From: Nitrospirota bacterium
GTDB lineage: Bacteria > Nitrospirota > JACRHJ01
DNA: 64,000 nt
Assembly (NCBI GenBank): GCA_963733375.1
Contig: CAVTDB010000026.1
Span: 128,001 to 192,000, forward strand
Direction of reading: 5' to 3'
Shown here one piece after another: positions 1 through 31,938 of this stretch (within the stretch, counting starts at the first letter, position 1; every line of letters begins with the position of its first letter). Below the pieces are notes generated by a model that saw only the letters and a list, made by a program, of their open reading frames with translations, made no database searches and was not told the origin of the DNA. The translations under genes were made by a program, and so were the position numbers.

Positions 1-220
1 CTCCTTTTGCGGAAGAGATTGCAATATATCTCGCCAGGCCGACACCGAGACCCATGATAAGGACCGGTTCCATGAAGCTTGATGCCCGCCGTACAAGAGC
101 ATAAATCCCGAAGCCCTCGGGACCGAGCGACTTTGCGGCCAGTTTGTAAACCAGGATGCCGCAGAGGAAGCTAAAGGCATAACTTATAAAGGTAATTATA
201 AGGTCTTTTTTCATACTCAT
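1..220 (-). CDS. Wzx-like oligosaccharide flippase, N-terminal part (runs off window)
   Basis: Manual translation MSMKKDLIITFISYAFSFLCGILVYKLAAKSLGPEGFGIYALVRRASSFMEPVLIMGLGVGLARYIA; LGPExFGxY motif typical of Polysacc_synt flippases; AGAGG RBS upstream. Confidence 0.75.
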   Translation of the reverse strand, partial: MSMKKDLIITFISYAFSFLCGILVYKLAAKSLGPEGFGIYALVRRASSFMEPVLIMGLGVGLARYIAISSAKG

Positions 221-414
221 CCTCTTACTTATTCAGAAGCGTGGATTGTCGAGAGCAAAAACCTTGATGAAGGCTTAGAACGGGCTTAGAACTTTAAAAA
301 ACGATTTCTCGGTGGCTTCGGATGGTAGAAATGCTTTAATAAATATAACACCGGACAACTATTTGTCAACTACGGCAGGAATGGGTTTTAATTAAGAATT
401 AAGGATTAGATCCC

Positions 415-451
415 AAAAAAAAGGGGGTTGGGCAATAGCCCAACCCCTTTT
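415..451. terminator. Rho-independent terminator, probably bidirectional
   Basis: A-run, GGGGTTGGGC-AATA-GCCCAACCCC hairpin, T-run; lies just downstream of the minus-strand gene ending at 477. Confidence 0.75.
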
Positions 452-476
452 AATCTAAGGTTACCCGTCAGAGATG

Positions 477-3400: not shown

Positions 3401-5369
3401 GAATTGGTCGATATGCCCGCCGCGGCCGTCGTAATGGACGAATCCATGACGTTGACTAAAATGCTGTTGGTGCCGACCGATGAACTACCGATGTCCCAGT
3501 TCCAGTTGTTCGAATTGCCCCAGTCCTGGACTAAAGCGTAAGCTCCCGCCGTGTCCGGACCCTTCCGGAGGAACTGGTATTTATAATTGCCGCTGCCGCC
3601 GGCGGCGGCGGCGGTCCATGTTACAGCCTGTCCCGGAACTGCGGCCGGCAGGCTTGGAGCAAGGTCATTTACAGTTACCGGTACGTTAGCTGTTACATTT
3701 ATGCCTGTCCCGGGCATTTCAACGTTTCCTGCCTTATCTGTAGCCCTTGTCATGATGGTGTAGGACCCATCCTGGGGCGGAGTCCAGCTGTAGCTCCATT
3801 GTGAGGCGCCCTTTGCCGTGTTCCAGGTCGTACCGCCGTCTGTGGATACTTCCACCTGGTCACGCCGCCAACCTTTCCGTCGGCCGCAACGCCATTCACT
3901 GCGACTGTGGAACCCGTAAGCCTCGCGCCGTTTTTCGGATGCGTTATTTTCGAGCCCGGCGGGGCAAGCCTGACGACATTCACGTATGAGCAACTGATTA
4001 TGGTCTCATGCGCGCCGCTCGAATCCGTCGCGCGGCTCATTATCAGATATGCGCCATTTGTCGCCGGTGTCCATTTATAGTTCCATGTTGTCGTGCCGCT
4101 GGCCGTATCCCCAGGTCGTCCCGCCGTCTGTCGATACTTCCACGAAAGAGACGCCGTCCGCGGCCGAAGCCGTGCCGGTGACGGTGAGACCGGAGCTGCC
4201 GGCAAATGCCTTGCCAGCGGTTACAGGCGAAGTTATTGTCGAGACCGGTAAGGCGTATGACGGCCCCTCGATCATCCTGATGCGGTTGTTCTTGCTGTCG
4301 GCTACGAATATATTGCCCTTTGAATCCGTAGTGAGGCCAAACGGGTAGCGAAGTCCGGCATTGCCCGCGGCAGCGCCGTCGCCGGAAAATCCGGCAACCC
4401 CGGTCCCGGCCATAGTGTTTATCGTGCCGGAGGTATTGACTACCCTGACGCTCTGGTTGTACCAATCAGAAATATATACATTTCCGGCGGCGTCAACCGA
4501 GACGCCGGAAGGATGGTTAAGCGAGGCGGATATGGCATGTACCTCCGTCACCGGATAAGCCAGGCAGTGCCGTCGCCCGCCAGCGTCGTTATCCCGCCGT
4601 CCGAGCTGACAACCCTGACGCGCTGGTTATAACAGTCGGCGATGTAAAGTTTGCCCGCCGCGTCCAGGGCAATGCCCACAGGCCTGTTAAGCTTCGCCGA
4701 AATGGCGGGGCCGCCGTCTCCGGAAAAACCCGCCGCGCCCGTCCCGGCGACGGTCTTTATTATGCCCGTCGCATCTATCATCCGGATGCGGTTGTTGCCG
4801 GTATCCGATACGTATATATTCCCCTTGGAGTCCACCGCTACGCCTTCGGCTTGCTTTATGGCCGCCGAGACAGCCGGCCCGCCGTCGCCTGAGAAACGGG
4901 CGGCGCCGGTCCCTGCAACGGTAGTTATAATGCCGGATGCGCTTATCTTCCTGATGCGGTTGTTGCTCATGTCCGCGAAAAACACGTTCCCGGCGCTATC
5001 GACGGCAATGCCCGAAGGGTTCTTCAGCTTTGCGAGTATGGCGGAGCCGCCGTCGCCTGAATAACCCGCGGCGCCAACGCCCGCGATGGTCGATATCTTG
5101 CCGGTGGCGTCAATTTTCCTGATGCGCTGGTTGGCCCTGTCCGAGACGTAGAGGTTGCCCGCGGCGTCAGACGCCACGCAGCTCGGGGCACTTAGCCGGG
5201 CCGCAGTAGCCTGGCCCCCGTCGCCTGAGAAACCTGCGTTGCCAAGACCTGCATAAGTGTGGATATCGCCGGAAGATGCGAATGCCTCTTGCGAGGCGAA
5301 TATGAGAAGCGGGAGTAGAAGGATGAATACATAGAAATTGAAAAGCTTGGAACTCTTTTGCAGACCCAT
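477..5369 (-). CDS. Large secreted protein, paralog 1: signal peptide, NHL beta-propeller, 2 bacterial Ig domains, 7 Ig-like repeats, right-handed beta-helix, C-terminal DIGAY; multiple frameshifts
   Basis: ORF fragments 4548-5447, 4075-4551, 2605-3993, 1893-2897, 1702-1980 and 1485-1880 join into one colinear architecture; GFSGDGG NHL repeats; VEVSTDGGTTW Ig motif; ends SYDIGAY* at 477. Confidence 0.75.
1545..3690 (-). repeat. Seven ~300-bp tandem intragenic repeats (Ig-like, VTWTASATGGSGTYQYQFxRxGPDT)
   Basis: GAACTGGTACTGGTA or a close variant recurs at ~300-bp spacing (about 1718, 2016, 2316, 2622, 2930, 3241, 3571). Confidence 0.8.
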
Positions 5370-5531
5370 TTTTTTTCCTCCGTGTTGCTTGAGGGCAAAG
5401 CACTTTAAGAACTGTTCCAACATACTCTGATGCGGTTTTTTTATCAAATTAATTGTTTTTAATTAATCCATATTAATCAAACAGTTAGCGGTAATGGTCT
5501 TAGGCGGCGCGTGGAGCATATACGTAAGCAT

Positions 5532-5636: not shown

Positions 5637-8424
5637 CTAATAAGCGCCTATGTCCCAGGATGTACGGGTAGCGCCGGTTATATTGGTATTGAACAGCGTC
5701 TGCGGCGTCCCCGCGCCAATCGCAGGGCTACCGGCATTCAGCCGGTAATTCGATCGAGCTTACAAAGGAGGGGTTCGCGCCAATTGAATGCGCGTCGTTA
5801 GCGGTGTTGGCCTTGATACTGCGCAAGGGAATAGTTCGAACCTTTCCACTGGACATCGGTCGCGTTACCGTACCAGAGATTATAGTCGCCGGCGATCTGG
5901 CGTGTAATCAAACGACCCGACCCGCATGCCCCACTGACGCAGTTGCTGATGATATTGTTTTTCATCGTGAGGTTGACTACTCCCACAGGATTGTTCTGCC
6001 CGGCTTGGCTGAAATCAAGGCCGTATTGCGTTGCTGTCTATGGTATTGTTGTAAATCCCGTATGTTTTGCCCGTCATCGCCTAACAAAATCCCGAAATTG
6101 CAATTTGTTATAATGTTGTTGTAAATCAACAACCCATTTACGTTGGGGCCATGCCAGCCCTGGATGCCACAGCTCGCAATGTGCTGAATCAGGTTGTTTC
6201 GGATTGTTATGTTTGCAGTAGATGCCATGATATAGATACCCTGGTCCTGGCTTGTATTAGTACCTATGTGCTCGAGAACGCAGTTTTGAATCGTGATGTT
6301 CGTTGCATTGGTGTAAAAAATCAATGCCGTCAACACTGTAGTTCTGTATGGTGATTCCATCAAGGATTATGTACCCTGAATTTTCAAAAACGCACAAAGA
6401 CACCCGGCAGACACACCTGTCCCGTCAAAAATCGGCGTCTCTCCAGGATAGGCCTTGATGGTTATCGGGGCGGATGCGTGCCAGATGCGAGAGCATAGAC
6501 CATTGCAAGACCCTTGTCCCGTGTAAGTTCCGCCACGGACATAAAGGGTGTCGCCTGCTTTCAGGGCCGCCGCTCCGTGGGCTAGCGTCTTCCACGGCGA
6601 GCTTATCGTCCCGCTGTTGCTGTCCGAACCGGTCGGAGCTATGTAATAGGAGTTGCCCGTCGAGGTGGGGCTAGGGGTCGGGGTCGGGGTCGGAGTCGGA
6701 GTCGGGGTCGGAGAGGTGCCGCCAGTTGCCGACAGGCTGACGGTGACATTTATGCCTGTGCCGGGCGTTTCAACGTTTCCTGCCTTATCCGTAGCCCTTG
6801 TCATGATGGTGTAGGACCCATCCTGGGGCGGAGTCCAGCTGTAGCTCCATTGTGAGGCGCCCTTCGCCGTATTCCAGGTCGTCCCGCCGTCTGTGGATAC
6901 TTCCACCTTGGCCAAGCCGCAACCCTTTCCGTGGGCCGCAACGCCATTCACTGCGACTTTGGAAGCCGTAAGCCTCGCGCCGTTTTTCGGATGCGTTATT
7001 TTCGAGCCCGGCGGGGCAAGCCTGACGAGTACGTTCACGTATGAGCAACTGATTATGGTCTCATGCGCGCCGCTCGAATCCGTCGCACGGCTCATTATCA
7101 GATATGCGCCATCTGTCGTCGGGCTCCATTTATAGCTCCATGTTGCCGTGCCGCTGGCCGTACCCCAGGTAGCCCCGCCGTCTGTCGATACTTCCACGAA
7201 AGAGACGCCGCCCGCGGCCGAAGCCGTGCCGGTGACGGCGAGACCTGAGCTGCCGGCAAATATCTTGCCAGCGGTTACAGGCGAAGTTATTGTCGAGACC
7301 GGTAAGGCGTATGACGGCCCCTCGATCATCCTGATGCGGTTGTTCTTGCTGTCGGCTACGAATATATTGCCCTTTGAATCCGTAGTGAGGCCAAACGGGT
7401 AGCGAAGTCCGGCATTGCCCGCGGCAGCGCCGTCGCCGGAAAATCCGGCAACCCCGGTCCCGGCCAGAGTGTTTATCGTGCCGGAGGTATTGACTACCCT
7501 GACGCCCTGGTTGTGCCAGTCGGCTATATATACAGTTCCCGCGGCGGTAACCGACACGCCTGAAGGAAATCTAAGCGAGGCGGACATGGCATGTCCTCCG
7601 TCACCGGATAAGCCAGGCGTGCCGTCGCCCGCCAGCGTCGTTATCCCGCCGTCCGAGCTGACAACCCTGACGCGCTGGTTATAACAGTCGGCGATGTAAA
7701 GTTTGCCCGCCGCGTCCAGGGCAATGCCCACAGGCTTGTTAAGCTTCGCCGAAATGGCGGGGCCGCCGTCTCCGGAAAAACCCGCCGCGCCCGTCCCGGC
7801 GACGGTCTTTATTATGCCCGTCGCATCTATCATCCTGATGCGGTTGTTGCCGGTATCCGATACGTATATATCCCCTTTGGAGTCCACCGCTACGCCTTCG
7901 GCATGGTTTATGGCCGCCGAGACAGCCGGCCCGCCGTCGCCTGAGAAACGGGCGGCGCCGGTCCCTGCAACGGTAGTTATAATGCCGGATGCGCTTATCT
8001 TCCTGATGCGGTTGTTGCTCATGTCCGCGAAAAACACGTTCCCGGCGCTATCGACGGCAATGCCCGAAGGGTTTTTCAGCTTTGCGAGTATGGCGGAGCC
8101 GCCGTCGCCTGAATAACCCGCGGCGCCAACGCCCGCGATGGTCGATATCTTGCCGGTGGCGTCTATTTTCCTGATGCGCTGGTTGGCCCTGTCCGAGATG
8201 TAGAGGTTGCCCGCGGCATCAGACGCCACGCAGCTCGGGGCACTTAGCCGGGCCGCAGTAGCCTGGCCCCCGTCGCCTGAGAAACCTGCGTTGCCAAGAC
8301 CTGCATAAGTGTGGATATCGCCGGAGGATGCGAATGCCTCTTGCGAGGCGAATATGAGAAGCGGGAGTAGAAGGATGAATACATAGAAATTAAAAAGCTT
8401 GTAATTTTTTTTCAGACCCATCAT
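5637..8424 (-). CDS. Secreted protein, paralog 2: NHL propeller, 2 Ig domains, Pro-Thr linker, right-handed beta-helix, DIGAY end; frameshifted in 3' part
   Basis: ORF 6367-8496 plus fragments 5977-6363 and 5798-5986; YYIAPTGSDSNSGTISSPWKT beta-helix N-cap; ends WDIGAY* at 5637; likely start ATG 8424 after GGAGG. Confidence 0.8.
6673..6712 (-). repeat. Hexamer repeat encoding a (Pro-Thr)n linker
   Basis: (GGGGTC/GGAGTC)n on + strand; TPTPTPTP in translation. Confidence 0.8.
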
Positions 8425-8662
8425 TTTTGATTCCTCCGTGCTGTTTGGGGGTAATTCCCTTTCAGAACTGCCCCAAGATACGCTGGAGCGGGCCATGAAT
8501 CAAATTAAAAGTCTTTAATTAATCTTTATTAATCAAAGGTTAGCAGTAATGGTCTGTTAAAGAAATGGTTTTGGGTGGTAAGGAAAGCATGAAAAAGCTT
8601 TAAAAGCGGGCGCCTCGAACGATAAGTACATAGTTGTTTTTGTGTAGCGGCAATCACTGCCG

Positions 8663-9196: not shown

Positions 9197-9487
9197 ATGG
9201 CGGGGTTGGGTGATATATTCAAGGGCAATATCGTTACTGCCGTAGTGATTGGGGTGGGTGCAATAATACTTGCGCCGGTGGCGGCCCGCGCGGCCAAACC
9301 GCTCGCCAAGGCCGCGTTAAAGGGCGGGCTGATTGCCTTTGAGAAGGGCAAGGAGGCGTTTCACGAGGTGAGCGAGGTGGTCGAGGACCTGGTGGCAGAG
9401 GTCAAGGCGGAGATGGAGAAGGAGGAGGCGAAGGAAACCCTTGAATCCATTGTCGCTGAAGGGGGAGAGATTACAAGTGCCTCCTAA
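9197..9487 (+). CDS. DUF5132-like small protein (Gly-rich hydrophobic segment plus amphipathic acidic helix; FezA-like)
   Basis: AVVIGVGAIILAPV...KPLAKAALKGGL...EVVEDLVAEVKAE; GGAGG RBS. Confidence 0.75.
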   Translation: MAGLGDIFKGNIVTAVVIGVGAIILAPVAARAAKPLAKAALKGGLIAFEKGKEAFHEVSEVVEDLVAEVKAEMEKEEAKETLESIVAEGGEITSAS

Positions 9488-10004
9488 AGCCGGGCCGGAA
9501 GCGCCGTCGGCCTATATAAGCCATGCGACAAAAGGAAGGGTGCGGTTCAAGATACCTTCCAAGAAGGGCAACGCCCGTTTCTTTGCAAATATCAAGGACG
9601 TTCTTGAAAAAAATACCAGGGTCGCGGGTGTTGAAGTCAATCCCGTGACCGGCAGCGCCCTTGTCACCCACAATGCCGACATGGATTCCATAATCAAGCT
9701 CGCGGAGTCGAACAAGTTCTTCAAGCTCGAAAAGCGCGGACGGCGGCATGTATCCAACAACGTGGTAGAGAGCTTCAAGAGCCTGGACAATACGTTGAAA
9801 TCCGCGACGGACGGAGAGCTTGACCTGCCCACCGCGTCATTCCTGACGCTGGCGGGAGTCGGGATATATGAAATTGCGAAAGGCAATTTCGCCGCGCCCG
9901 CATGGTATACCGCATTCTGGTATGCGCTCAACATATTCCTGAAGGCAAGGCCTGACGCCAATGAAATCGAAAGAGAGCTTGTTCCACTTGGCGTTATCGA
10001 ATAA
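9477..10004 (+). CDS. HMA2-domain protein with C-terminal membrane segment (FezC-like)
   Basis: SHATKGRVRFK R-rich motif; GVEVNPVTGSALV; C-terminal PAWYTAFWYA. Confidence 0.75.
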   Translation: MPPKAGPEAPSAYISHATKGRVRFKIPSKKGNARFFANIKDVLEKNTRVAGVEVNPVTGSALVTHNADMDSIIKLAESNKFFKLEKRGRRHVSNNVVESFKSLDNTLKSATDGELDLPTASFLTLAGVGIYEIAKGNFAAPAWYTAFWYALNIFLKARPDANEIERELVPLGVIE

Positions 10005-10016
10005 TGCAAGGGCAAT

Positions 10017-13000
10017 GTGGTACAGCCTATACATACTGCGGTCAGAGGGAGAGCACGGTATAAGGTAAAAGGACTTTACCACTCCGAATCCCTCAAAACA
10101 GATATCGAAAAGGGCCTCTTTAATGAGGCTCGTGTAATTTCTTTTTCCGTCAACATCCTGACCGGAAACGTCCTTGTATTTTTTCCTCCCGAAGAATCCA
10201 GCTCCGTAATAGCCTCACTGCTCAAATCCATTGTAGACAGCTACATAAAAAAACTTCAGGAATCCGGCCCGCCAGCCAGGACGGTAACCTCACCCGCAAA
10301 GGCAAAAGCTGAGCTTCGGGAAAAGTTCAAGAGAATCAGGCCGTCATGAAGAACAGGACGCGGCGCACTGGCATCTTATCAGTTCCGAAGACGCCCTCAA
10401 TCTCACACGCTCTCAGGCAGGCTACGGCCTCACGTCCGAGGCCGCGGCGGATAAGCTCAGGAAATTCGGACCGAACCTCCTGCCGGAGGCTGTAAAGCGC
10501 TCCGGCCTTGAGATATTCGCGGAACAGTTCAAATCGATTCCGGTTGCGCTTCTGGGTGTAGCCGCGGGCCTTTCAATCTTTACGGGAGGCATATCCGACG
10601 CGGTCCTTATCGCGGGCGTGGTCCTCATCAACGCCGCAATCGGTTATGTCACTGAAACCCAGGCCGAAAAAACCATCAGTTCGTTGAAAACCCTGGTCAG
10701 GCCTTACGCGACTGTCTTAAGAGACGGCTTGCCGACAGAACTGGATGCCAAAGACGTGGTGCCGGGCGACGTCATTATCCTGAAACCCGGCAGTTACGTG
10801 GCTGCGGACTCAAGGCTTATAGAGGCCGATTTTCTCACCGTCGACGAGTCGGCCCTCACCGGCGAGAGCATGCCGGTGACAAAGAATACCGAGACGCTGG
10901 TAAAGCTGGACGTGCCCCTTGCGGACAGATTGAATATGGCTTATATGGGGACTCTTGTAATCGGGGGACAGGGCTATGCCGTGGTCGTCGCCACAGGCGA
11001 GTTCACCGAAATAGGCAGGATTCAGACGATGATGGGGGAAGCCCAGTCGCCGGAGACTCCCATGGAGAGACAGCTCCGGGTAATGGGCGGACAGTTAGTC
11101 GTCATAAGCGGGGGCGTGTGCGCCGTCGTGTTCATAATCGGCCTGTTACGGGGATATGGGTTCCTGCAGATGCTGCAGTCGTCGATATCCCTTGCCGTGG
11201 CCGCGGTCCCCGAGGGCCTGCCCACGATCGCGACTACGACCCTTGCGCTCGGGATAAGGAAGATGCGAAGGCATAACGTGCTTATCCGGCATCTGGAAGC
11301 GGTGGAAACCCTGGGTTCAGTCCAGACCATCTCGTTCGACAAGACCGGCACGATCACGATGAACAGGATGACCGTGGTGGAGGTTTACGCAGGCGGCATA
11401 AGGTTAAAGATATCAGACGGCAAATTCATCTCGGATGCGGACAGAGTGAATCCCTATGCGATGAAAGAGCTGCTGATGCTGCTGCACGTATCGGTCATAT
11501 GCAATGAGACCAAAATAGACTTCAAAGACGGCGAATACGAGCTTCGAGGCTCGCCCACGGAAATCGCGCTGATTAACCTGGCTATAAACGCTGGCATAGA
11601 CGTAGTGGAACTAAGGGCAAGGCACCCCATCCGAAAGATAAGCCATCGCTCGGAGAGCCGCAACTACATGAGCACCATGCACGGGGCGAAGGGCGGCGGC
11701 AAAATTTTCGCGGTAAAGGGAAGCCCGTCGGAAGTCCTTGCGATGTGCAAGTGGCATATGAAGGGCGGGCAGACGCTTCAACTTACCGAGGATGACAGGC
11801 AGGAGATATTCACGGAAAACGAGAGGATGGCCGGCGCTTCCATGAGGATGCTGGGTGCGGCTTTCAATTATTCCGGTGAAAACGGCAATGGGCTGATATG
11901 GCTGGGCCTTATCGGCATGGCGGACCCCGTTAGGAAGGGACTCAAGAACCTTATGGCCGGTTTTCACCAGGCCGGCATCGATACGATAATGATAACGGGC
12001 GACCAGAGCCCTACCGCGTTTGCAATCGGCAAGGAGCTGAACCTGAGCCAGGACAAGCAACTCGAAATACTGGATTCGACGCATCTTGCCGATATGGACA
12101 AGGAAGTCCTGCGGGCGCTCGCCGCGAGGGTGCATGTTTACGCCAGGGTAAGTCCGGCGCATAAGCTCCAGATAGTCAGGGCATTGCAGGAATCCGGGAA
12201 GGTGGTCGCCATGACGGGCGACGGAATAAACGACGGCCCGGCGCTGAAGGCGGCGGACATCGGGATTGCGCTTGGGCATACCGGGACGGACGTAGCCAGG
12301 GAAGTGGCGGATATCGTCCTGGAAGACGATAACCTGGAGACGATGATAGTGGCGGTCAGCCATGGAAGGACAATATATAACAACATCCGCAAATCGGTCC
12401 ACTACCTGCTTGCCACCAACTTAAGCGAAATCAACGTAATGTTTCTTGCTATCGCGGGCGGCCTGGGCCAGCCCCTGAGCGCGATACAGCTCCTTTGGAT
12501 AAACCTCCTTTCGGATATCTTCCCCGGGCTTGCGCTGGCGCTCGAACTGCCCGAGCCGGACGTTCTGTCCCGGCCGCCCAGGGACCCGCACGAGCCGATA
12601 ATAAAGCGCTCTGACTTTAAAAGGATCGCTTTTGAGTCGGCGCTTTTGTCCGGCGGGGCGCTTGGGGCTTATGGATACGGAATAGCGAGGTATGGGATGG
12701 GGGCAAAGGCAAACACGATGGCGTTTACGACCCTGACGACCGCCCAGCTGGTGCACGCAATAAGCTGCCGCTCAGAGACGGAAAGCATCTTCGGCAAGGA
12801 AAAGATGCCGCCGAACCCTTATCTCAACACGGCGCTCGGGGTTTCTCTCGCCTTGCAGGTTCTGACCCTGGCGATACCGGGTTTAAGGAGGCTCCTTGGA
12901 ATTACGACGATCGGGTTTGCCGACGCGGCCGTTATCGGCGCCGGCTCCATACTGCCATTTCTGATAAACGAGGCGACGAAGAGTAAACCTTCGGAAAAAG

Positions 13001-13122
13001 CTGATCGCGAAAAAAGCGCCTCCGCGCTTGAAAGCACCGTACCTTCAACCGAACGGGAGACGAACGGATATGAGAAAGAATTTCATGTTTACCTCGGAGT
13101 CGGTAACGGAAGGACACCCTGA
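10017..13122 (+). CDS. P2A (Ca2+-type) P-type ATPase with N-terminal HMA2 domain; frameshift near 10340
   Basis: HMA2 fragment 10017-10349 (HTAVRGRARYK, NILTGNVLV); GLTSE...FGPN cation-ATPase N domain; TGES, AVPEGLP, DKTGT, TGD, GDGIND, LLWINLLSD. Confidence 0.9.
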
Positions 13123-14260
13123 CAAACTTTGCGACCTTATAGCCGACGGTATCGTGGACCACTTCCTCCAGCAGGACCCGCTCTCCAAGGTGGTCGCCGA
13201 GTGCGCGGTTTCCACGTCCATCGTATTCATCGCGGCGAGGTTCGCTTCCACGGCCATTGTGGATTTTCCGGCGGTTGCGAGACAGATAATAGACCAGGTA
13301 GGCTATGATCAGCCGGCCTTTAACGCGAAGACGTGCAGCATACTTACAAGCCTGAGGGAGCTTCCGGAGAAAGAGCGCCCGGCCGTGGACGAGAAGGACA
13401 TGTCGGATGAGGAGATCGAGGCGATGCCGGCAAGAAACCAGGTCACGGTCTTCGGTTATGCCTGCGATCAGACATCGGTATTGATGCCGCTCCCGATATG
13501 GCTCGCGCACAAGCTGGCCAGGCGGCTTACGATGGTGAGGCTGACGAAGACGCTTCCCTACCTCTGCCCGGACGGAAAGACCCAGGTGGGGGTGGAGTAC
13601 AGGGATTTTAAGCCGCACCGGATACACAGCATAACGATAGTCGCGAGCCAGGACAAAACCGGCGTGCCCGTCCTTAAAAACCTGCACGAAGAAATAAAGG
13701 GGGCGGTGATCGACGAGGTCTTCAAGGACGAGAGAATAAAACCGGACGACAAGACACATATATTCGTGAACCCGAGGGGGCAGTTGATAGTGGGCGGCCC
13801 CTCCGTGCATTCCGGCCTTACGGGCAGGAAAAACGCCATCGACACTTACGGCGAATATTCGAGGCAAAGCGGCGCGGCGCTCTCCGGCAAGGACCCGTCG
13901 AGGATTGACAGAGTCGGGGCCTATGCCGCGCGGCATGCGGCAAAGACAGTGGTCGCGGCGGGGCTTGCAACGGAGTGCGAGGTCCAGTTGAGCTATTCAA
14001 TCAACCTCTCAAGGCCGGTGAGCGTGCAGGTGGAGACGTTCGGCACCGGCAAAATTGGCGATGAGGAGATAGCCTCGATGCTGGAGAAAAATTTCGATTT
14101 CAGGCTAGCCGGAATAATAAAAAAGTTCAACCTGAGGCACCTGCCGTCTTTAATCAAGGGAGGCTTTTACAGGAAGCTTGCCGCATACGGCCATATGGGC
14201 AGGATGGACATGGGACTGCCCTGGGAAGTAACGGAAAAGATATCCGCGTTCAGGAGGTAG
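13070..14260 (+). CDS. metK: Methionine adenosyltransferase homolog (divergent active site)
   Basis: FTSESVTEGHPDK, PDGKTQV, GLTGRK, SGKDPSRIDR, AAYGH; the GAGDQG signature is altered to PARNQV. Confidence 0.85.
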   Translation: MRKNFMFTSESVTEGHPDKLCDLIADGIVDHFLQQDPLSKVVAECAVSTSIVFIAARFASTAIVDFPAVARQIIDQVGYDQPAFNAKTCSILTSLRELPEKERPAVDEKDMSDEEIEAMPARNQVTVFGYACDQTSVLMPLPIWLAHKLARRLTMVRLTKTLPYLCPDGKTQVGVEYRDFKPHRIHSITIVASQDKTGVPVLKNLHEEIKGAVIDEVFKDERIKPDDKTHIFVNPRGQLIVGGPSVHSGLTGRKNAIDTYGEYSRQSGAALSGKDPSRIDRVGAYAARHAAKTVVAAGLATECEVQLSYSINLSRPVSVQVETFGTGKIGDEEIASMLEKNFDFRLAGIIKKFNLRHLPSLIKGGFYRKLAAYGHMGRMDMGLPWEVTEKISAFRR

Positions 14261-14261
14261 C

Positions 14262-14495
14262 ATGCTGAATTATCTTTATGACGACGAGGCGGAACGGCAG
14301 ATACACCTGCACGCTATGCAAATACTCTGCAAGGAGATAATACTCCCGGAGGAGGAAATAAGGGAATTGTACGAGCGGGAACTGGAAAGACTGAAGGGAA
14401 CCGCGAGGGTCAAGGATTTTCTGGTCGTGCTCGTCTGCAGGGCCGTGAGAGACACCCTGCGCAGGCACCGGGAAAATGAGGAGTTGGCCTCATGA
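14262..14495 (+). CDS. Small helical protein (DUF3562-like)
   Basis: YERELERLKGTARVKDFLVVLV pattern; starts 2 nt after the metK-like stop. Confidence 0.6.
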   Translation: MLNYLYDDEAERQIHLHAMQILCKEIILPEEEIRELYERELERLKGTARVKDFLVVLVCRAVRDTLRRHRENEELAS

Positions 14496-14498
14496 CCC

Positions 14499-15359
14499 TC
14501 ACCCGGCCCCGTCTTTTTCTCCGTCTTTCGGTGTCACGTTTTTCATTAAAAAATCCACGATAACAGCCGCCGTCAGGGCCAGTATCAAGAGCCCCGCCGC
14601 AGTCATGATGCTGTTCAGCAGGTCGGGGCCGAACACCAGGACCAAACCAAGGCCGAACATCATGAAGCCGGAAACCAGGTTCAAAAACTTTCCCTGGCGG
14701 GCCTGCGTCTTTTTTGTCCCCAGGCTTACCGCGAAGATAAGGACAATGGCCGCGAGCGGTATGACATAGACGATGCAGTAAAGAAGAAGATAGGAGTAAT
14801 AATCGACCGTGGAGAGCTTGAACAGGGTCAGGCCCCTTGTGAATATCAGCGGGAACCCCAGCGAGCTGACCATCTCATAGACGTTTACGGCTATGGCAAG
14901 AAGGCTTGCGCCCGCTATCATCGGGACCGTGCGTTTTGAGTGCAGGAGCCCTTTAATCCTGGATATTACGGTATTGCCGGGTTTGTCGGAGTTTAAAAAA
15001 TTTTCTCCGTCACCATCCGTGAAATAGCTCCTTACATTCAGGCCGCCCACTATAACCGCGGCTATGCCTGCCGACATCGTTATTATCCTTAAGTGGCCGA
15101 CAAAAAGGAATACGTTCAGCCATGCGGCTATGAAGATGAAGTAGATTAAACCCGAGAATAAAACGAAGGTCCCGCCGATAAGGAGCATCCTGCTTCTCGA
15201 CCGCTCACTTATCAGCAGGCCCAGGAGAAACGAGAGGACGAAAAAAGCGACTGGGTTAACGCTGTCCAGCGCTGCGAGTATTACCGTAAACAAAGCTGGG
15301 GAGATTGATGAAGGATCAACCTTCCCCAGCAAAGGCAGGATTAATAAGGCATTGGACAT
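14499..15359 (-). CDS. Multi-pass membrane protein, CcdA/DsbD-TM-like
   Basis: C-terminal part of ORF 14499-15911 from MSNALL; LDSVNP..F.VL pattern and about 8 hydrophobic helices. Confidence 0.6.
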   Translation of the reverse strand: MSNALLILPLLGKVDPSSISPALFTVILAALDSVNPVAFFVLSFLLGLLISERSRSRMLLIGGTFVLFSGLIYFIFIAAWLNVFLFVGHLRIITMSAGIAAVIVGGLNVRSYFTDGDGENFLNSDKPGNTVISRIKGLLHSKRTVPMIAGASLLAIAVNVYEMVSSLGFPLIFTRGLTLFKLSTVDYYSYLLLYCIVYVIPLAAIVLIFAVSLGTKKTQARQGKFLNLVSGFMMFGLGLVLVFGPDLLNSIMTAAGLLILALTAAVIVDFLMKNVTPKDGEKDGAG

Positions 15360-16038
15360 TACCTGCTTTTCTTCCTCGCTTTTGCATGCTCTTCCGCGCC
15401 TCGGCCTCAGCCGGTTCCGCTTCTTCCGCCGCCGTCTTCCAACAGCCCTCTTCGGAAGCGCCGCGCTGGCTACATCTTTCAAGCCGCCCACCACGCCGAT
15501 AAGGACATCTTTCACGGTGGCCACGGCGGCATTTCCGATGGAGCCCGCCGCCTCAACGGCGCCGCCTACCGCGGAAACCGCGACTTCTTCGAGATTGCCG
15601 CCCACTTCCTTCGCGGCCTCGATTATCCCGTCTACCGCGCCCTTTGCCACAATAGCGACATCCGCGCCGACTTCGGCGGCGCCCTTAACGGCGCCTCTTG
15701 CGGTCTGGCTTGCGGCCGTGACAACGTCTCCGCTGATATCGCTTATCCCCATCACGGCGCCTTTAGCGACGCTTCTCGTGCTGTTGATAAGGTTCGCGCC
15801 CACTTCCTCGGAGGCCTGTATAGCCCCTTTCAGGACATCCGCCGTCACGTTCACGGCCTGGTCCGTCACCGTGCCCGTGGCCTTGATGGTATTTGAAACC
15901 GTATCGCGCACAAGACGTCACTATCTCGGCCTCTATCTCATTCAGCCCCTGCAGGCTTGAAGTTATCTCACCTTTTACGGTAGTACCTGCTTTTCCTATC
16001 GACATGCCGGGATGTTCCAACGCTTCTTCCTTAGCCAT
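15359..16038 (-). CDS. Ala/Gly/Val-rich amphipathic helical repeat protein; frameshift near 15915
   Basis: MAKEEALEH start (16038, GGAGG RBS) joins RDTVSNT...; ~22-aa repeats AxxGAVxGAAEVGxD; exact 3' end uncertain. Confidence 0.6.
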
Positions 16039-16609: not shown

Positions 16610-16981
16610 TTACAGCAGTACGCTTAAAAGTGAAAGCGCGGAGCCCTCGAAGACCAGATCGACCGCGACGCCGAAGACAGCCTTGCTAACGGCGCGGCCG
16701 GCCTTATGGGCCGCCTGGTGCACGTACTGGTCGTTGGTTACAGCCTTTGAATAATCGAAATAACCTTTTTTTGCCATTTCGGAAACTATGGCTTTGTGCG
16801 TCACGGAGATGGGGTCGTAATTGATGACGATGCTGCCGGTAACGGTGTTGGTAGCGACGGCGGTAACTCCGTCAATGGAGCTTATCTCACCTTCGATCCT
16901 TGCAGCCATCAACTCCTTGCCCTTGATGACCGGGGTCTTGACTCTGAGCCTGCCAGGTACATTGTGCATGTAATAGCTCAA
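16610..16981 (-). CDS. HMA2-domain protein with hydrophobic C-terminus
   Basis: YYMHNVPGRLRVK, ATNTVTGSIVINYD; GGAGG RBS. Confidence 0.75.
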   Translation of the reverse strand: MSYYMHNVPGRLRVKTPVIKGKELMAARIEGEISSIDGVTAVATNTVTGSIVINYDPISVTHKAIVSEMAKKGYFDYSKAVTNDQYVHQAAHKAGRAVSKAVFGVAVDLVFEGSALSLLSVLL

Positions 16982-17286
16982 ATCTCACCTCCCTTGATTT
17001 TTATATACGTCCTGCAAACCGGATATCCGGAGCATCGGAACCTCCAGAAAACGTCCTCCCTCCGGTATATGTGCATATGTTTGCCGCAGACGGGACATAA
17101 AGGTTTGTGGTTTATAACAGGTCTTTTGCTCCCCAGGGTAAACTGTTTGTTGCATATCAGACACAGATACCGCTGTTTTTCCCGTGAAGTGTGCCCGTAC
17201 CTGTAAATTGCTTCGCTTCCGCATGAAGGGCATTCAATTTCCCCGGTCCATCCTTGGGCGGCTTTGTCATGCCTACAGTTATACAA
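16978..17286 (-). CDS. Double zinc-ribbon protein (IS1 InsA-like N-terminal ribbon plus topoisomerase-like ribbon)
   Basis: CPSCGS..IYRYG....KQRYLCLICNKQF and CPVCG...FRCSGYPVC; true start probably near 17251. Confidence 0.65.
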   Translation of the reverse strand: MYNCRHDKAAQGWTGEIECPSCGSEAIYRYGHTSREKQRYLCLICNKQFTLGSKRPVINHKPLCPVCGKHMHIYRREDVFWRFRCSGYPVCRTYIKIKGGEI

Positions 17287-17401: not shown

Positions 17402-17803
17402 TCAACTTTTAGCTTTGGCCGCCTTGGTAGCCACTTTTTTTGCCGGTTTAGGCCGGGATACCGTCTCTTCCTTGCGCGGCGCCGCTTTCTTTATGGCCGC
17501 CTTCGCGGAAGACACATGCCGCGCCACCGTTCCTCCCACGCCTGCCCCGGCTGCCGCGGCTAAGAGAGGCTCGTCGGCTGCGGCGTGACGTTCGGATTTT
17601 ATTTCCGCCACCAGGTCGCCGACCACTTCGCCGACGTCATGGTACGCCTCCCTGCCTTTATCATACGCGACCAGCCCTCCTTTTATGGCCATCTTCACGA
17701 CCGGCTTCGCCACCCTGGCGATAATCGGCACGAATATGATGCCCCCGACGCCTATCGCCAGCGCCGTCACTATGTTCCCTTTGAACAGGTCATCAATTCC
17801 CAT
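17402..17803 (-). CDS. Second DUF5132-like protein with Lys/Ala-rich tail
   Basis: DDLFKGNIVTALAIGVGGIIFVP...KPVVKMAIKGGL; clear paralog of 9197-9487. Confidence 0.75.
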   Translation of the reverse strand: MGIDDLFKGNIVTALAIGVGGIIFVPIIARVAKPVVKMAIKGGLVAYDKGREAYHDVGEVVGDLVAEIKSERHAAADEPLLAAAAGAGVGGTVARHVSSAKAAIKKAAPRKEETVSRPKPAKKVATKAAKAKS

Positions 17804-17874: not shown

Positions 17875-18261
17875 TTATATACCCAGGAATTCAGCGACCT
17901 TGCTCCTTAATTCGTAAAGGTTGCCTTTGCATATATAACCCCGCAGCCCATGTTCCGCGGCCGATTTGCGCAGGCTGTCTTCGTCGTTCGACGAAAGAAA
18001 AGCTACCGGGATGTCTTTGCAGGACATGGTGTTTTTTATTACTTGCGCGAGCGATTCGCCCGAGAGTGCGGGCATGTTTATATCGATCAGGATAAGGTCC
18101 GGCCGCAGGTCCTTTATTACATTCGTGGAGCCTAAGGCCTGGCTGTGGGTATGCGCTTCGTAACCCTCGTTTTCCATGATCTCTTTTGTCGTCAGAAGAA
18201 GTCTCTCGTCGTCATCGATTATCAATATTTTTTTCTTTTTCTTTTCCATTTCCATTTCCAT
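17875..18261 (-). CDS. Single-domain response regulator (REC)
   Basis: ILIIDDD, PDLILIDINMP, YICK. Confidence 0.85.
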   Translation of the reverse strand: MEMEMEKKKKKILIIDDDERLLLTTKEIMENEGYEAHTHSQALGSTNVIKDLRPDLILIDINMPALSGESLAQVIKNTMSCKDIPVAFLSSNDEDSLRKSAAEHGLRGYICKGNLYELRSKVAEFLGI

Positions 18262-19450
18262 TTCCGTTTCCGTTCTCCATTAAGTCAAGTGGAAGGCTGA
18301 TTTCAAACTTCGTGCCTTCTCCGAAGGTACTGCTGATAGAGATATCGCCTCCAAGCAGGTCAACCAGGTGCTTCGTTATGGTGAGGCCAAGCCCCGTCCC
18401 TTCATGCCTCTTCGTATGCGCGTCCTCAAGCTGGGTGAATGCCGTGAAAAGTCTTTTTAGGTCTTCCTCTCTTATGCCTATGCCGGTATCCCGGACTGAA
18501 ACGAGGAACCTGCCTTCTTCCTTACGCGCCTCAAGGATGATCCTTCCTTCATCCGTGAACTTTGCCGCGTTGCTCATGAGGTTCGTCAGTATCTGGCGGA
18601 GCTTGACCCGGTCCGTATAAATACTGAACGGACTTCCTATTACGTGGACCTCCACGGAAACGGCTTTTTTCCCGAGAAGCACGCGGGTGGTATCCGCGAC
18701 TTCTTTCAATACCGGGGCCGGGTCGAATAATTCAGGGATGACTTCCATCCGGCCCGCCTCGACCTTCGACAGGTCGAGTATGTTGGTAATAATAGCGCGC
18801 AGGCCAAGGGCGCTTGACGAGAGCAGGTCCAGCCGGTCCGTCAGCTGGTCGATGTATCCCTTATCGCATGATATCTTCATCAACTCGGCCAGGCCTATGA
18901 TGGCGTTGACCGGAGCCCTCAGTTCATGAGTCACGTTGGCGATGAACTGGGATTTGATGTTGTTGACCTTCTCCAGTTCCTTCGCCTTGGCGTTGGCCAG
19001 TTCCTTCTGCATGATGCTGTTGGCCAGGGCGTTGCTCTGCTCTATGACTATCCTTTTTATGGAGAGAAGCCCGATGAACTTATCGTCGTCATCGACGACC
19101 ACTATATCGTCATAGACGTCCTGGAACGGCCTGCAAAGCGCCCTGTCGAGCGTTTCGTCTATGCCGCGCGACATATTGATCGACAGGGGCTCTTTATCGG
19201 CTATGGTAAAAATCGGCTTCCGCTCGTGAAGCTCGAAACCGAACCTTCTAAACAGCGTGAAAAGCAACTTGTTCCTCGTAACGAGGCCGACGGGTTTACC
19301 CATATCCACGATGGCGAGCGCGTCGAGATGCTTCTCCTGAAAGAACCTTTCAGCCACTTCTTTTACGCGCATATCGGGAAAGATATGCTCTGTTGAAGTG
19401 ATAAGCTCTCCGATAGGAGTTATAGTCTCTTCCATGATTTTCCTGTTCAT
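18212..19450 (-). CDS. CBS-domain sensor histidine kinase
   Basis: N-terminal CBS pair; H-box THELRAP, N-box NLMSNAAKFT, DTGIG, GTGLGL. Confidence 0.88.
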   Translation of the reverse strand: MNRKIMEETITPIGELITSTEHIFPDMRVKEVAERFFQEKHLDALAIVDMGKPVGLVTRNKLLFTLFRRFGFELHERKPIFTIADKEPLSINMSRGIDETLDRALCRPFQDVYDDIVVVDDDDKFIGLLSIKRIVIEQSNALANSIMQKELANAKAKELEKVNNIKSQFIANVTHELRAPVNAIIGLAELMKISCDKGYIDQLTDRLDLLSSSALGLRAIITNILDLSKVEAGRMEVIPELFDPAPVLKEVADTTRVLLGKKAVSVEVHVIGSPFSIYTDRVKLRQILTNLMSNAAKFTDEGRIILEARKEEGRFLVSVRDTGIGIREEDLKRLFTAFTQLEDAHTKRHEGTGLGLTITKHLVDLLGGDISISSTFGEGTKFEISLPLDLMENGNGNGNGNGKEKEKNIDNR

Positions 19451-19454
19451 ACGG

Positions 19455-20244
19455 CTAATATGCGAACCATTTATCGAGGCTGTACAGGCCGGACACAACG
19501 CTTTCGCGGCTCTTTGCGGAGAGGTAGTTTCTGCTGACGGACCCTTTTTTTGCACTGACATCAGATTTTATCGCCCGGCTGAAATAAAGGAATGACTTTA
19601 TCCTCCGGACGCCCAGCAGGCTCCAGAGGTGAGGGAGGAGGGTCATTTCTCCGTACCAGGGTATCTCCGCCTTCTTGTCGCCGGAATAATATTTGATGCT
19701 GACGGGGATGACAGCAATGCCGGAGCGCGCGGGCGCCTCAAACAACATCCTCTTGAAATCCCCCGTCCCGCTGCCGTCGGTCGTGGTGCCTTCAGGGAAC
19801 GTAACCACGTTTACCCCGTGCGACAGCGCCGTCTCCACGTCCGACAGCGATTTCCACGATGCGAGCGCCGAGCGCCGGTCTATGAATACCGTCCCGGCGA
19901 GCCGCGCCATCCAGCCTATCAGCGGCCAGGACCGCACCTCCATCTTCGATACGAAAACCGACGGGGAGAGGCTCGCCATCACTAAAATGTCGATATAGCT
20001 GACGTGATTGCAGACGGTAAAACCGGTATTTTGCACCCTGTGCCCGGTGGAGCCTACGTCTATTCCCAGTATCAGCGCAGACGGCCCTGGCCCAGACCAT
20101 GCATCCGAATGCTGAAAATTTTGCCTTAAGCCTTGCATCAAAAATGAGGATAAGACGCCCCGCCTGGACGGGCGGCAGCATCAAGGCTGTCCAAAGGACC
20201 AGGAGCAATAGTCTTATTAGCCTGAGCGGAAAACGGCTGTCCAT
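19455..20244 (-). CDS. Lyso-lipid O-acyltransferase (OlsA/PlsC-like); frameshift near 20080
   Basis: NHVSYID (HX4D), FIDR, FPEGT motifs; coupled to the upstream olsB-like gene. Confidence 0.8.
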
Positions 20245-21011
20245 CAGAAGTACCTGTTCCTGTAGCGGTTAATAAGGCGCTCGCGGTCGAGCAGGATTAA
20301 GAAGTCCGAAACGCCGAACGCGCCGTCGAATGCCGGCTCTCCGCAGATGCGCGCGCCAAGTTTGAGATAGGCGAGCAGCAGGGGCGGGACATGTTCAAGC
20401 ACCGTGCCCCTGTCAAAGTCGGCATGCGCGTCGAAACCCGGGACGTTTGCCAGAGGAAAGGTCCGGAATTCGGAGTCGGCCAGGTAAGACTTTTTGAAAT
20501 ATGCATATGCGTTGCTTATGACCTTCGGGTTTATGGTGTGGATGCTCCCGCATCCGAAGACGTACTTTATATCGTGCTCCAGTATATACTTCGCCACCCC
20601 GGACCACATGAGGTTAAGTACGGCCGAGCCCCGGTAATCCTTGTGCACGCATGCCCGGCCCAGTTCCAGTTTTTCTCCCTGATGCCTGAAAATATTCCGC
20701 AGGTCGAACTCGTTCTCCGAATAAAAACCGACCCCCGCGTCGGCCCTCTTTCCGGTCATCATCCGGTACGTGCCGACGACCATGTCACGGGATGAGTCCA
20801 CGACCATTATATGGTCGCAGTGCCTGTCGTAAACATCCCTGTCCAGGCCGGTCGCAAACGACGAGGCGAGCCCTTCGTTCAGTTCGAGGTTGAAGACTTC
20901 GAACCGGAGCCTCAGGACCGACTCCATCTCTTCCTCAGTGACCGCCTTCTTCAGTACCAGCGCGGACTGCGCTTTCTCCATTACCGTATTAAAACTCATC
21001 GATACCTCCAT
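20244..21011 (-). CDS. GNAT N-acyltransferase, ornithine-lipid OlsB-like
   Basis: LRFEVFNLE, DRDVYDRHCDH, VVGTYR, FYSENEF, ELGRACVHKDYR, PPLLLAYLKLGA. Confidence 0.8.
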   Translation of the reverse strand: MEVSMSFNTVMEKAQSALVLKKAVTEEEMESVLRLRFEVFNLELNEGLASSFATGLDRDVYDRHCDHIMVVDSSRDMVVGTYRMMTGKRADAGVGFYSENEFDLRNIFRHQGEKLELGRACVHKDYRGSAVLNLMWSGVAKYILEHDIKYVFGCGSIHTINPKVISNAYAYFKKSYLADSEFRTFPLANVPGFDAHADFDRGTVLEHVPPLLLAYLKLGARICGEPAFDGAFGVSDFLILLDRERLINRYRNRYF

Positions 21012-31103: not shown

Positions 31104-31179
<76 letters not shown>

Positions 31180-31262
31180 ATAAATTTAAATTTTGATGAC
31201 CCGCGGATTAAGAAATGAGCAGGATGCTACAGTATAACTAATATCTGCACCCGGAAAAATTT

Positions 31263-31338
31263 TGGTGCGCCTGGAGGGAGTCGAACTCCCGACCACGGAT
31301 TCGGAGGCCGATGCTCTATCCAGCTGAGCTACAGGCGC
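31263..31338 (-). tRNA. tRNA-Arg(CCG), stem mismatches
   Basis: GCGCCTGTAGCTCAGCTGGATAGAGC..CT CCG AA..TTCGA..ACCA. Confidence 0.8.
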
Positions 31339-31411
31339 ATCTATTTCGGATTGCGGATTAGGCCTGTTTCAAGATTTCAATCCACATTTTGAAATCCGCA
31401 TTCCGGTTTCC

Positions 31412-31488
<77 letters not shown>

Positions 31489-31546
31489 ATGTCAAGCCTC
31501 AAAAACATCAGAGACGGCCAGATCGGCCGTCTCTACGATAAAAAAA

Positions 31547-31623
31547 TGGGGTGAGCGACGGGGCTTGAACCCGCGGCCACCAGGGCCACAACCTGGTGCT
31601 CTACCAACTGAGCTACGCCCACC
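31547..31623 (-). tRNA. tRNA-His(GTG)
   Basis: G-1; TT GTG GC anticodon loop; GGTTCAAGCCC; CCCA end. Confidence 0.93.
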
Positions 31624-31739
31624 ATGAAATTTAAGATTATGGATTTACCTTAGAATGAGGATTTTAAGAATTTAGTGTGACACGGATGTCAAGCTATACA
31701 ATCCCATCCACGATCCTGAACGTTCTGCATTATGATTAT

Positions 31740-31816
31740 TGGCGCGCCTGAAGGGATTCGAACCCCTGACCCACAGCTTAGAAGGCTGTTGCTCTATCCA
31801 CCTGAGCTACAGGCGC
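31740..31816 (-). tRNA. tRNA-Arg(TCT)
   Basis: ACAGC-CT TCT AA-GCTGT anticodon arm; GGTTCGAATCC; GCCA. Confidence 0.95.
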
Positions 31817-31861
31817 CCGGCTGGGACCGTTTGGCTTCGCCGACCAGTTTCCGTAGTTAAA

Positions 31862-31938
31862 TGGTCGGGGCGAGAGGATTTGAACCTCCGGCTTTCTGCT
31901 CCCAAAGCAGACGCGCTACCGGGCTGCGCCACGCCCCG
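31862..31938 (-). tRNA. tRNA-Pro(TGG)
   Basis: CGGGGCGTGGCGCAGCCCGGTAGCGC..TT TGG GA..GGTTCAAATCC..ACCA. Confidence 0.95.

Follow-up and report, generated by a model that had tools for sequence, protein, structure and literature searches.

Methionine adenosyltransferase (MAT; MetK in Escherichia coli, MAT2A in human; EC 2.5.1.6), the enzyme that makes S-adenosylmethionine (SAM), is among the most conserved enzymes. The subject here is a MetK-fold paralog of 396 aa, encoded at 13070..14260 (+) of a 64,000-nt stretch of a Nitrospirota genome (contig CAVTDB010000026.1; the whole stretch is called the window), directly behind the gene of a P-type ATPase. The paralog shares the three-domain fold of the canonical enzyme over its full length, and it retains the ligands of triphosphate, Mg2+ and K+ as well as the contact between R244 and E42 in the dimer. 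It differs in the methionine part of the site (E55R, Q98L, S99P, D118N, D238H and K269R in E. coli numbering), in an extended and unconserved gating loop, and in its genomic position, being a second copy behind a P-type ATPase and away from the gene for S-adenosylhomocysteine hydrolase (AdoHcyase). It is probably a neofunctionalised, pump-dedicated protein that uses the triphosphate site of the MetK fold and makes no SAM.

The roles of the changed positions are known from the human enzyme. According to one study of human MAT (PMC6850014), the nitrogen of methionine is held by Glu70 (E. coli E55) and Asp258 (E. coli D238) and its oxygen by Gln113 (E. coli Q98), with Asp258 also contacting O3' of the ribose, while the adenine is held by Ser247, Arg249 and Phe250. 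Glu23, His29, Lys181, Lys265, Lys285, Lys289 and Asp291 are catalytic, and Arg264 is a gamma-phosphate ligand that pairs across the dimer with Glu57. SAM formation falls to 2.5% in the S114A mutant (E. coli S99) and is lost, with phosphatase activity kept, in two patient variants, D258G and K289N, and in swaps of the gating loop; in the authors' view the two activities rely on separate parts of the pocket. The pairing of E. coli and human MAT2A residues follows PMC8715544. Given these roles, the paralog keeps the triphosphate part of the site and replaces the methionine part, both of the acids that hold the methionine amino group (E55 and D238) having become bases. E. coli D118 has also been proposed as a methionine contact, and H14 and K165 are reported to matter chiefly for the adenosyl-transfer step.

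The MetK-fold paralog and its active site

The open frame runs from 13028 to 14260 (+) and is intact, an ATG at 13070 giving the 396-aa protein. It matches the N-terminal, central and C-terminal MetK domains of Pfam over its full length (PF00438, 1.2e-32; PF02772, 1.3e-35; PF02773, 5.2e-54) and scores 375.8 bits against TIGR01034, the equivalog model for methionine adenosyltransferase, which has a cut-off of 309.4. Each of the 45 PDB sequences that it matches bears the name SAM synthetase or methionine adenosyltransferase, with 7r3b_A at the top (1.1e-93, aligned over residues 3-395). The identification of this gene as a MetK homolog, made in a first-pass annotation of the DNA, is thus secure.

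In a three-way alignment with E. coli MetK (the annotated K-12 record, residue numbers following the literature, i.e. the sequence index minus 1) and the canonical MetK of the same genome, the paralog is 42% identical to the E. coli enzyme. The first-pass annotation had listed ten triphosphate and metal residues as retained, and all ten are identical in the alignment: E8, H14, D16, E42, D163, K165, R244, K245, K265 and D271. Every substrate-pocket substitution that it listed is present too. GGEITT has become AARFAS, which includes E55R; KQSPDI has become ELPEKE, giving Q98L and S99P; GAGDQG has become PARNQV, giving D118N; GRF has become GQL, giving R229Q and F230L; GDCG has become VHSG, giving D238H; HGGGAF has become QSGAAL; and SKVDR has become SRIDR, giving K269R. 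The gating-loop region after position 98 is extended, and 7 residues are inserted near the C-terminus. The methionine-head ligands E55, Q98 and D238, together with D118, therefore stand as R, L, H and N in the window protein, and at the adenine-contact positions its own clade has R227, Q229 and L230.

The pattern is that of a family. Residues were counted in 82 paralogs and compared with 12 canonical MetKs, in which 144 columns are invariant. At least 90% of the paralogs share the canonical residue in 93 of these columns, the other 51 falling below that level. On the retained side, E8, H14, D16, E42, D163, K245, K265 and D271 occur in all 82 paralogs, R244 in 81 and K165 in 79 (S or N in the other three). 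Nine of the ten members of the catalytic and metal set (E8, H14, D16, E42, K165, R244, K245, K265, K269 and D271) are kept in the window protein and in at least 79 of the 82. On the replaced side, E55R, I56F, D238H, K269R, F262L, V270I and I18L are found in 82/82, G258S in 81, E129Q, I247A and A301S in 80, I246N in 79 and G253E in 77, followed by D118N in 75, Q98L in 72 (Q is never present) and S99P in 65. The family as a whole thus departs from canonical MetK also in the triphosphate-recognition loop (I246N, I247A and G253E), in the change of HGGGAF to HSGSAL and in the 7-residue C-terminal insertion.

The gating loop and the adenine contacts vary. S99, D101, I102, G105 and V106 of the loop are invariant in 12/12 canonical MetKs; the paralog loop is longer, and at positions 100-105 the top residue occurs in at most 35 of the 82 sequences. 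T227 is replaced by D in 70 paralogs and by E in 8, R229 by P in 54, and 68 paralogs retain F230, with L in its place in 8 and V in 6. The change of F230 to L noted in the first-pass annotation is therefore real in the window protein but is not a trait of the family, being peculiar to a few clades that include the window's own. The pocket replacements at large are fixed across the 82 members. All are in frame, the same ones recur in 82/82 relatives, and the ratio of nonsynonymous to synonymous substitution rates (dN/dS) is 0.05-0.12, which bears out the earlier statement that they are not indel noise.

The window gene is not the only metK of its genome, and the first-pass proposal of another role thereby passes a check that had been set for it. 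A second metK encodes a protein of 383 aa that is 63% identical to E. coli MetK and has all of the pocket residues. It lies ~335 kb from the paralog on the same contig and adjoins the AdoHcyase gene; in the stretch of this genome taken as locus L001 it is seen at 202-1209 (-), beside that gene as expected of the methyl-cycle copy. The MetK C-terminal domain has two matches in the assembly (26 contigs, 81% complete, 5% contamination), the canonical one with 235.7 bits and the paralog with 184.9. Seven of 41 genomes (this one and 40 relatives) carry the paralog, at 71-100% identity to the window protein, and all seven also hold a canonical-type copy that is ~44-46% identical to it. The remaining 34 have the canonical type alone or, in the case of one 79%-complete genome, no match. 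A canonical copy is likewise present in five of five further hosts, namely four complete cyanobacterial chromosomes and one Nitrospiraceae metagenome-assembled genome (MAG). Two paralogs occur in one genome of Chlorogloeopsis.

As the methionine-head residues have all been replaced and a canonical copy is present, we infer that SAM synthesis has been lost. The open reading frame (ORF) is likely to be a functional member of a distinct and widespread subfamily of the MetK superfamily, other than the SAM synthetase of the cell. It belongs to the superfamily by fold and is outside the MetK equivalog by its defining substrate site. The non-SAM role that had been proposed for it (another nucleophile, a hydrolase or a sensor) gains support from the family-wide remodelling of the pocket, from the canonical copy, from the literature and from the close tie to the P-type ATPase described below.

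The human variants D258G, K289N, S114A and the gating-loop swaps, as described in PMC6850014, fall at positions that match those changed in the paralog (D238, K269, S99 and the gating loop). They are, however, isolated changes, found in patients or made in the laboratory, to an enzyme that works, whereas the paralogs are a natural family with a co-adapted set of residues fixed by selection; a set of this kind makes a new ligand likely, rather than mere loss. The family would then be a natural case of active-site repurposing in a highly conserved enzyme, with the methionine half-site turned into a fixed basic pocket.

Extent of the family and linkage to a pump

A scan of one genome per prokaryotic species found 80 paralog loci at 68-97% identity. 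Cyanobacteria account for 45 of them, mostly Nostocales, plus Pleurocapsales, Chroococcidiopsis, Coleofasciculus and a Leptolyngbyaceae MAG. The other hosts are, by their record titles, Nitrospirota, Thermodesulfovibrionia, 'Deltaproteobacteria', Syntrophales, Syntrophorhabdus, Deferrimicrobium, Binatia and Methylomirabilota. In a collection of 5.8 billion proteins, at least 3400 clusters at 90% identity were found at E <= 1e-120 among 8000 candidates scored; the best canonical-type sequence among those aligned reached 2.5e-103, in a separate library of 50%-identity representatives. The best 120 of the 3400 clusters are all at least 71% identical to the window paralog. Their source names, Brocadia and Limnocylindrales records included, are always methionine adenosyltransferase or S-adenosylmethionine synthetase, and the NCBI pipeline gives the former name because the equivalog model is passed. 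At least thousands of proteins that bear this name in the databases very probably make no SAM, and metabolic reconstructions of paralog-bearing genomes count a metK of that kind. A tblastn search of a plasmid collection with the paralog gave no match at E <= 1e-100.

The paralog ORF is complete in 79/80 loci, the remaining one ending at a contig edge, and dN/dS lies between 0.05 and 0.12 in 7/7 pairs; the gene is under purifying selection. Members of the family share 75% identity on average; the corresponding mean is 67% for the 12 canonical MetKs and 48% for comparisons of paralogs with canonical enzymes. In a FastTree phylogeny the 82 paralogs are monophyletic against the 12 canonical sequences and form a single clade on a long stem (midpoint root with branches of 0.54 and 0.26 on either side, local supports 0.60 and 1.0). 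The cyanobacterial paralogs, together with one 'uncultured bacterium' MAG copy (L077), nest within the non-cyanobacterial ones. With rooting by midpoint alone, the tree no more than suggests a direction of transfer.

Relatives that have diverged further (41-56% identity) are found in the library of 50%-identity representatives (P0198-P0214). They have in common L18/C19, the C-terminal insertion and, with one exception each, H238 (N in the exception) and R269 (H in the exception), and position 55 is R, H, S, D or G. When these sequences served as queries for a metagenome scan, 80 loci were obtained, of which 7 are paralog-type and 73 canonical-type.

The gene in front of the paralog encodes the body of a P2A-type P-type ATPase (10288..13122 (+); open from 10288, with the first usual start codon at 10618) with the Pfam domains PF00122, PF00702, PF13246 and PF00689 (Cation_ATPase_C). 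Its closest relatives of solved structure are human SPCA1 (2.8e-148), Listeria LMCA1 (1.6e-139) and SERCA (4e-112), and the PEGL motif of transmembrane helix (TM) 4 and the N and D of TM6 are aligned; against the NCBIfam equivalog models of the PMR1 and SERCA types it stays below cut-off. The pump thus resembles the SPCA1/LMCA1-type P2A Ca2+(/Mn2+) ATPases in its TM4 and TM6 residues but differs from them in an N-terminal fusion to a CoBaHMA domain (Pfam HMA_2) and in the MetK paralog that always accompanies it. In 9/9 relatives examined the pump is a single ORF of 1024-1074 aa that starts with the CoBaHMA domain, and H6, G11, R12 and R14 of this domain are invariant in 49/49 sequences. In the window the domain (10017..10349 (+)) lies in another frame than the ATPase body and reaches 24.2 bits against HMA_2, for which the cut-off is 30. 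The pump gene of the closest relative (L016) has several frame breaks, and in Chlorogloeopsis, with its two pump-paralog modules, the pump at L187-L188 reads as two ORFs (961 + 106 aa).

The position directly behind a P-type ATPase, remarked upon in the first-pass annotation, is a nearly constant feature of the family. In the window the first 53 nt of the paralog lie within the pump frame, whose end is at 13122. In 79 of the 80 loci the gene immediately before the paralog, in the same orientation, is a pump ortholog; the sequence of the 80th locus begins 236 nt ahead of the paralog. The distance from pump stop to paralog start is between -124 and +295 nt in 76 loci, 31 of which overlap. Two seeming in-frame read-throughs, with distances near -1190, proved to be artefacts of frame tracing. 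Within the set of 41 genomes, pump orthologs of at least 62% identity occur in exactly the seven that have the paralog, pumps elsewhere reaching at most 43%. A sample of 301 genomes of the phylum includes 42 with the paralog, and a pump ortholog (at least 60% identity) is present in all 42. The two genes are neighbours on a single contig in 41 of these; in the remaining genome they lie at the ends of two contigs. A pump with no paralog is seen in one more of the 301, a 65%-complete genome whose contig breaks off 17 nt from the pump, and two other matches are only 43% identical.

The linkage extends to the divergent relatives. Five of the seven paralog-type metagenome loci have a pump ortholog directly upstream, at 49-56% identity; of the other two, one is on a contig too short to judge and one has a 35%-identical P-type ATPase downstream. 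Any match to a P-type ATPase is found in 1/73 canonical-type loci. The paralog is, on these counts, the obligate downstream partner of a Ca2+-type pump, with stop and start often overlapping. No published description of the family, or of a MetK paralog beside a P-type ATPase, was found in a search that had the CoBaHMA-defining paper and all supplements outside its range.

Three proteins in which pump and paralog are joined (P0123, P0124 and P0168) were rejected as deletion or assembly chimeras, as the join removes the last membrane helices of the pump and, in two of them, the MetK N-domain. A complex prediction for two paralog copies and the CoBaHMA domain of the pump scored 0.01, which is taken as evidence neither way.

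Possible functions of the paralog

The reading that we favour, albeit tentatively, is that the paralog may bind, and hydrolyse or sense, a triphosphate, polyphosphate or nucleoside triphosphate ligand, serving the pump as an auxiliary enzyme or as a regulator. The family probably arose through duplication and was rebuilt once. One half of the site is the old one, with the Mg2+/K+ and triphosphate grip and the R244-E42 salt bridge of the dimer. The other half, formerly E55, Q98, D118, D238 and the gating loop, is now the fixed and more basic R55, F56, H238 and R269. The dimer would bind Mg-triphosphate at the conserved site, whether as inorganic tripolyphosphate, polyphosphate or a nucleotide triphosphate, and the new basic pocket would take a further anionic group. 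The ligand would be hydrolysed or sensed for the pump by the paralog as an accessory enzyme or regulatory subunit, with no transfer of adenosine to methionine. Both the nature of the ligand and physical contact with the pump are things that we infer. The hydrolase or sensor option is favoured by a lid and adenine contacts that vary and by the absence of any conserved enzyme that would use a product.

Several points weigh against this reading. The window paralog passes TIGR01034, the NCBI equivalog model for MetK. The adenine-stacking F230 is kept in 68/82 paralogs, which makes a nucleotide substrate possible, and H14 (82/82) and K165 (79/82), reported to matter chiefly for adenosyl transfer, fit a new nucleophile better. 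No conserved fusion of pump and paralog is present among 75 longer proteins, in which the joined forms are the three singletons already mentioned. An AlphaFold2 model of the monomer, built with 49 family sequences, has a mean pLDDT (predicted local distance difference test) of 54.3, too poor for pocket analysis or a fold search, and pocket geometry is therefore argued from the alignment alone. Lastly, the window pump is short of 2 nt after ~10336 relative to a 95%-identical ortholog in a sister genome. The sister pump is one ORF of 1037 aa, and the resulting frameshift in the window splits the CoBaHMA domain (frame from 10017) from the ATPase body (frame from 10288). The frameshift may be real, in which case the partner of the paralog is possibly broken, or it may be an assembly error.

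The strongest alternative is that the paralog is still an adenosyltransferase, with an anionic nucleophile that lacks a free alpha-amino group and is not L-methionine; on the residues we consider this possible but doubtful. ATP would be bound as in MetK, H14 and K165 would assist cleavage of the C5'-O5' bond, and R55, H238 and R269 would hold the nucleophile, candidates for which are a thioether acid, an N-acylated methionine or an inorganic anion. The product, or the tripolyphosphate released, would serve the pump or the compartment that it feeds. The invariant H14, the near-invariant K165 and a fixed, specific-looking pocket favour this option. E8, D16, D163 and D271 are also kept in 82/82 and F230 in 68/82, the replacements R55, F56 and H238 are invariant, which points to recognition of a specific ligand, and both acidic ligands of the methionine amino group have turned basic. 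A few genes away, in a non-cyanobacterial minority of loci that includes the window (19455-21011), are genes for an OlsB-like N-acyltransferase (8/80) and an OlsA-like acyltransferase (4/80), which could, speculatively, make N-acyl amino-acid lipids. However, the gating loop and S99, needed for closure of the site in SAM formation according to PMC6850014, are unconserved in the paralogs. The adenine contacts are variable and all three differ in the window's clade, and K165 is S or N in 3/82. Furthermore, the cyanobacterial loci conserve only the pump and the paralog and so offer no nearby enzyme for a special product.

An ordinary second SAM synthetase, with altered methionine binding and a role in local or conditional SAM supply, is improbable. 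Such an isozyme would account for the score above the TIGR01034 cut-off, for the naming of the protein as methionine adenosyltransferase or SAM synthetase by all sources and for the presence of the catalytic and metal residues, and archaeal MATs bind methionine through a different set of residues. Against it, all four methionine-head contacts have been replaced (E55 and D238 in 82/82, Q98 in 82/82, D118 in 75/82), and in human MAT a single substitution at a matching position is enough to abolish SAM formation or to lower it strongly (PMC6850014). A canonical copy is present in every paralog-bearing genome checked for one, and strict linkage to a cation pump, a neighbour shared by just 1/73 canonical loci, is unexpected for a housekeeping isozyme. 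A decaying duplicate, incipient pseudogene or artefact of poor assembly is hardly credible: the assembly is 81% complete and 5% contaminated, the window pump has its 2-nt frameshift and the pump of the closest relative several frame breaks, but the paralog frame is intact here and in 79/80 relatives (one being cut by a contig end), dN/dS is 0.05-0.12, the same substitutions are fixed across several phyla, and the mean identity of the family exceeds that of the canonical MetKs.

Whether it hydrolyses or senses a phosphate ligand, as we prefer, or transfers adenosine, the family is a candidate for new polyphosphate or adenosyl chemistry. Since the pump-paralog pair is present in culturable and genetically tractable Nostocales, it is directly testable.

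Neighbouring genes and a possible cation store

The + strand order in the window is DUF5132, CoBaHMA protein, CoBaHMA-pump, paralog and DUF3562. The run opens with a small membrane-associated DUF5132 protein (9197..9487 (+)), a relative of which is found in 37/80 loci. It is followed by a stand-alone CoBaHMA/HMA_2 protein with a hydrophobic C-terminal part (9441..10004 (+); PF19991, 9.8e-18; 32/80 loci). The DUF3562 gene (14262..14495 (+); 11/80 loci) begins 2 nt past the stop of the paralog. On the other strand are a 470-aa helical and membrane ORF (14499..15911 (-); 28/80), a third CoBaHMA/HMA_2 protein (16610..16981 (-); Pfam; 27/80) paired with the gene of a zinc-ribbon protein (16978..17286 (-); Pfam; 18/80) and a second DUF5132 protein (17402..17803 (-); Pfam; 33/80). 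The 470-aa ORF, which has only a sub-threshold 'Senescence' match, comprises a repetitive Ala/Gly/Val-rich helical part (~155 aa), an Arg/Lys-rich linker and a membrane domain. The helical part is found as a separate gene of ~230 aa, with no Pfam match, just upstream of the pump in 20 non-cyanobacterial loci. These accessory genes recur mostly in non-cyanobacterial loci, the cyanobacterial ones conserving little besides the pump-paralog pair.

The accessory families have been met before near the gene (ccyA) of calcyanin, a glycine-zipper protein of cyanobacteria with intracellular amorphous CaCO3, and have so far been discussed only around intracellular carbonate biomineralisation. According to bioRxiv 10.1101/2024.07.07.602159 and PMC8890360, the CoBaHMA domain (Pfam HMA_2) was first recognised in calcyanin; in Microcystis, ccyA and the gene of a Ca2+/H+ exchanger are flanked by DUF5132 and CoBaHMA genes, and the proteins of such neighbourhoods are proposed to act at an intracellular compartment. 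The word fragment 'adenosyl' does not occur in the main text of these two papers. The window, with three CoBaHMA and two DUF5132 genes, has the same families beside a Ca2+-type transporter. The transporter of ccyA systems is, however, a Ca2+/H+ exchanger and that of the pump-paralog modules a P-type ATPase, and the hosts of the latter are mostly anaerobic Nitrospirota or Desulfobacterota-type MAGs, unlike the cyanobacteria with ccyA. In a 40-kb region of Chlorogloeopsis around the second module, no Gly/Ala-rich, calcyanin-like ORF was found by composition and tblastn, and by tblastn the accessory genes of the window have no relatives there except the pump pair and histidine kinases.

The shared company of DUF5132 and CoBaHMA genes makes an intracellular cation store a reasonable context for the module, by association only. 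The ferrosome (fez) clusters, in which a P1B-6 ATPase and small membrane proteins build an iron-storage organelle, follow a similar general logic, combining a P-type pump with small membrane or HMA-like proteins for an intracellular metal store, but the pump is there of P1B type and here P2A-like. We know of no MetK-like gene in ferrosome clusters. On the cation-store view, pump and paralog, with DUF5132, CoBaHMA and coat-like proteins, would be the core of a horizontally spread module hosted by Nitrospirota, Desulfobacterota-like bacteria and heterocystous cyanobacteria. We put forward only as a conjecture, and a rather unlikely one as a whole, that the paralog performs new chemistry (transfer of adenosine to an anionic non-amino-acid, or handling of tripolyphosphate or polyphosphate) as the obligate partner of the pump, and that the module loads an intracellular cation store or mineral inclusion. 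The strict pairing of pump and paralog, together with the CoBaHMA and DUF5132 genes, offers a handle on how bacteria build cation stores.

Other genes recur in subsets of the loci. A CorA-family channel gene directly follows the paralog in 9 non-cyanobacterial loci; one of these genes (L031, 11210-12178; Pfam 8e-53) has an SMN motif in place of the GMN of CorA. In 22 cyanobacterial loci a pyridoxamine-5'-phosphate-oxidase-like gene is divergent from the pump (e.g. L053, 5209-5670 (-)).

In the window the cluster is adjoined by genes for a response regulator (17875-18261 (-)) and a CBS-domain histidine kinase (18212-19561 (-)), and a few Nitrospirota loci (L017, L030, L084 and L089) have relatives of these, at 57-70% identity, in the vicinity of the module. 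Next to these is a PlsC-type acyltransferase (19455-20141 (-)) beside an Acetyltransf_5 (GNAT) protein (20244-21011 (-)), the arrangement known from OlsA/OlsB aminolipid synthesis; the relatives near the paralog, in 4/80 and 8/80 loci respectively, are all non-cyanobacterial. Upstream of the cluster are two NHL-repeat/bacterial Ig-domain proteins (4548-5447 (-) and 6367-8496 (-)); this region of the closest relative (L016) is repetitive and has been rearranged.

Promoter-like and terminator-like sites are present at no more than shuffle level. At Rfam gathering thresholds no riboswitch was found ahead of the paralog operon, the only hits in the window being six tRNA genes, which are clustered within ~830 nt at 31107-31938 (-).

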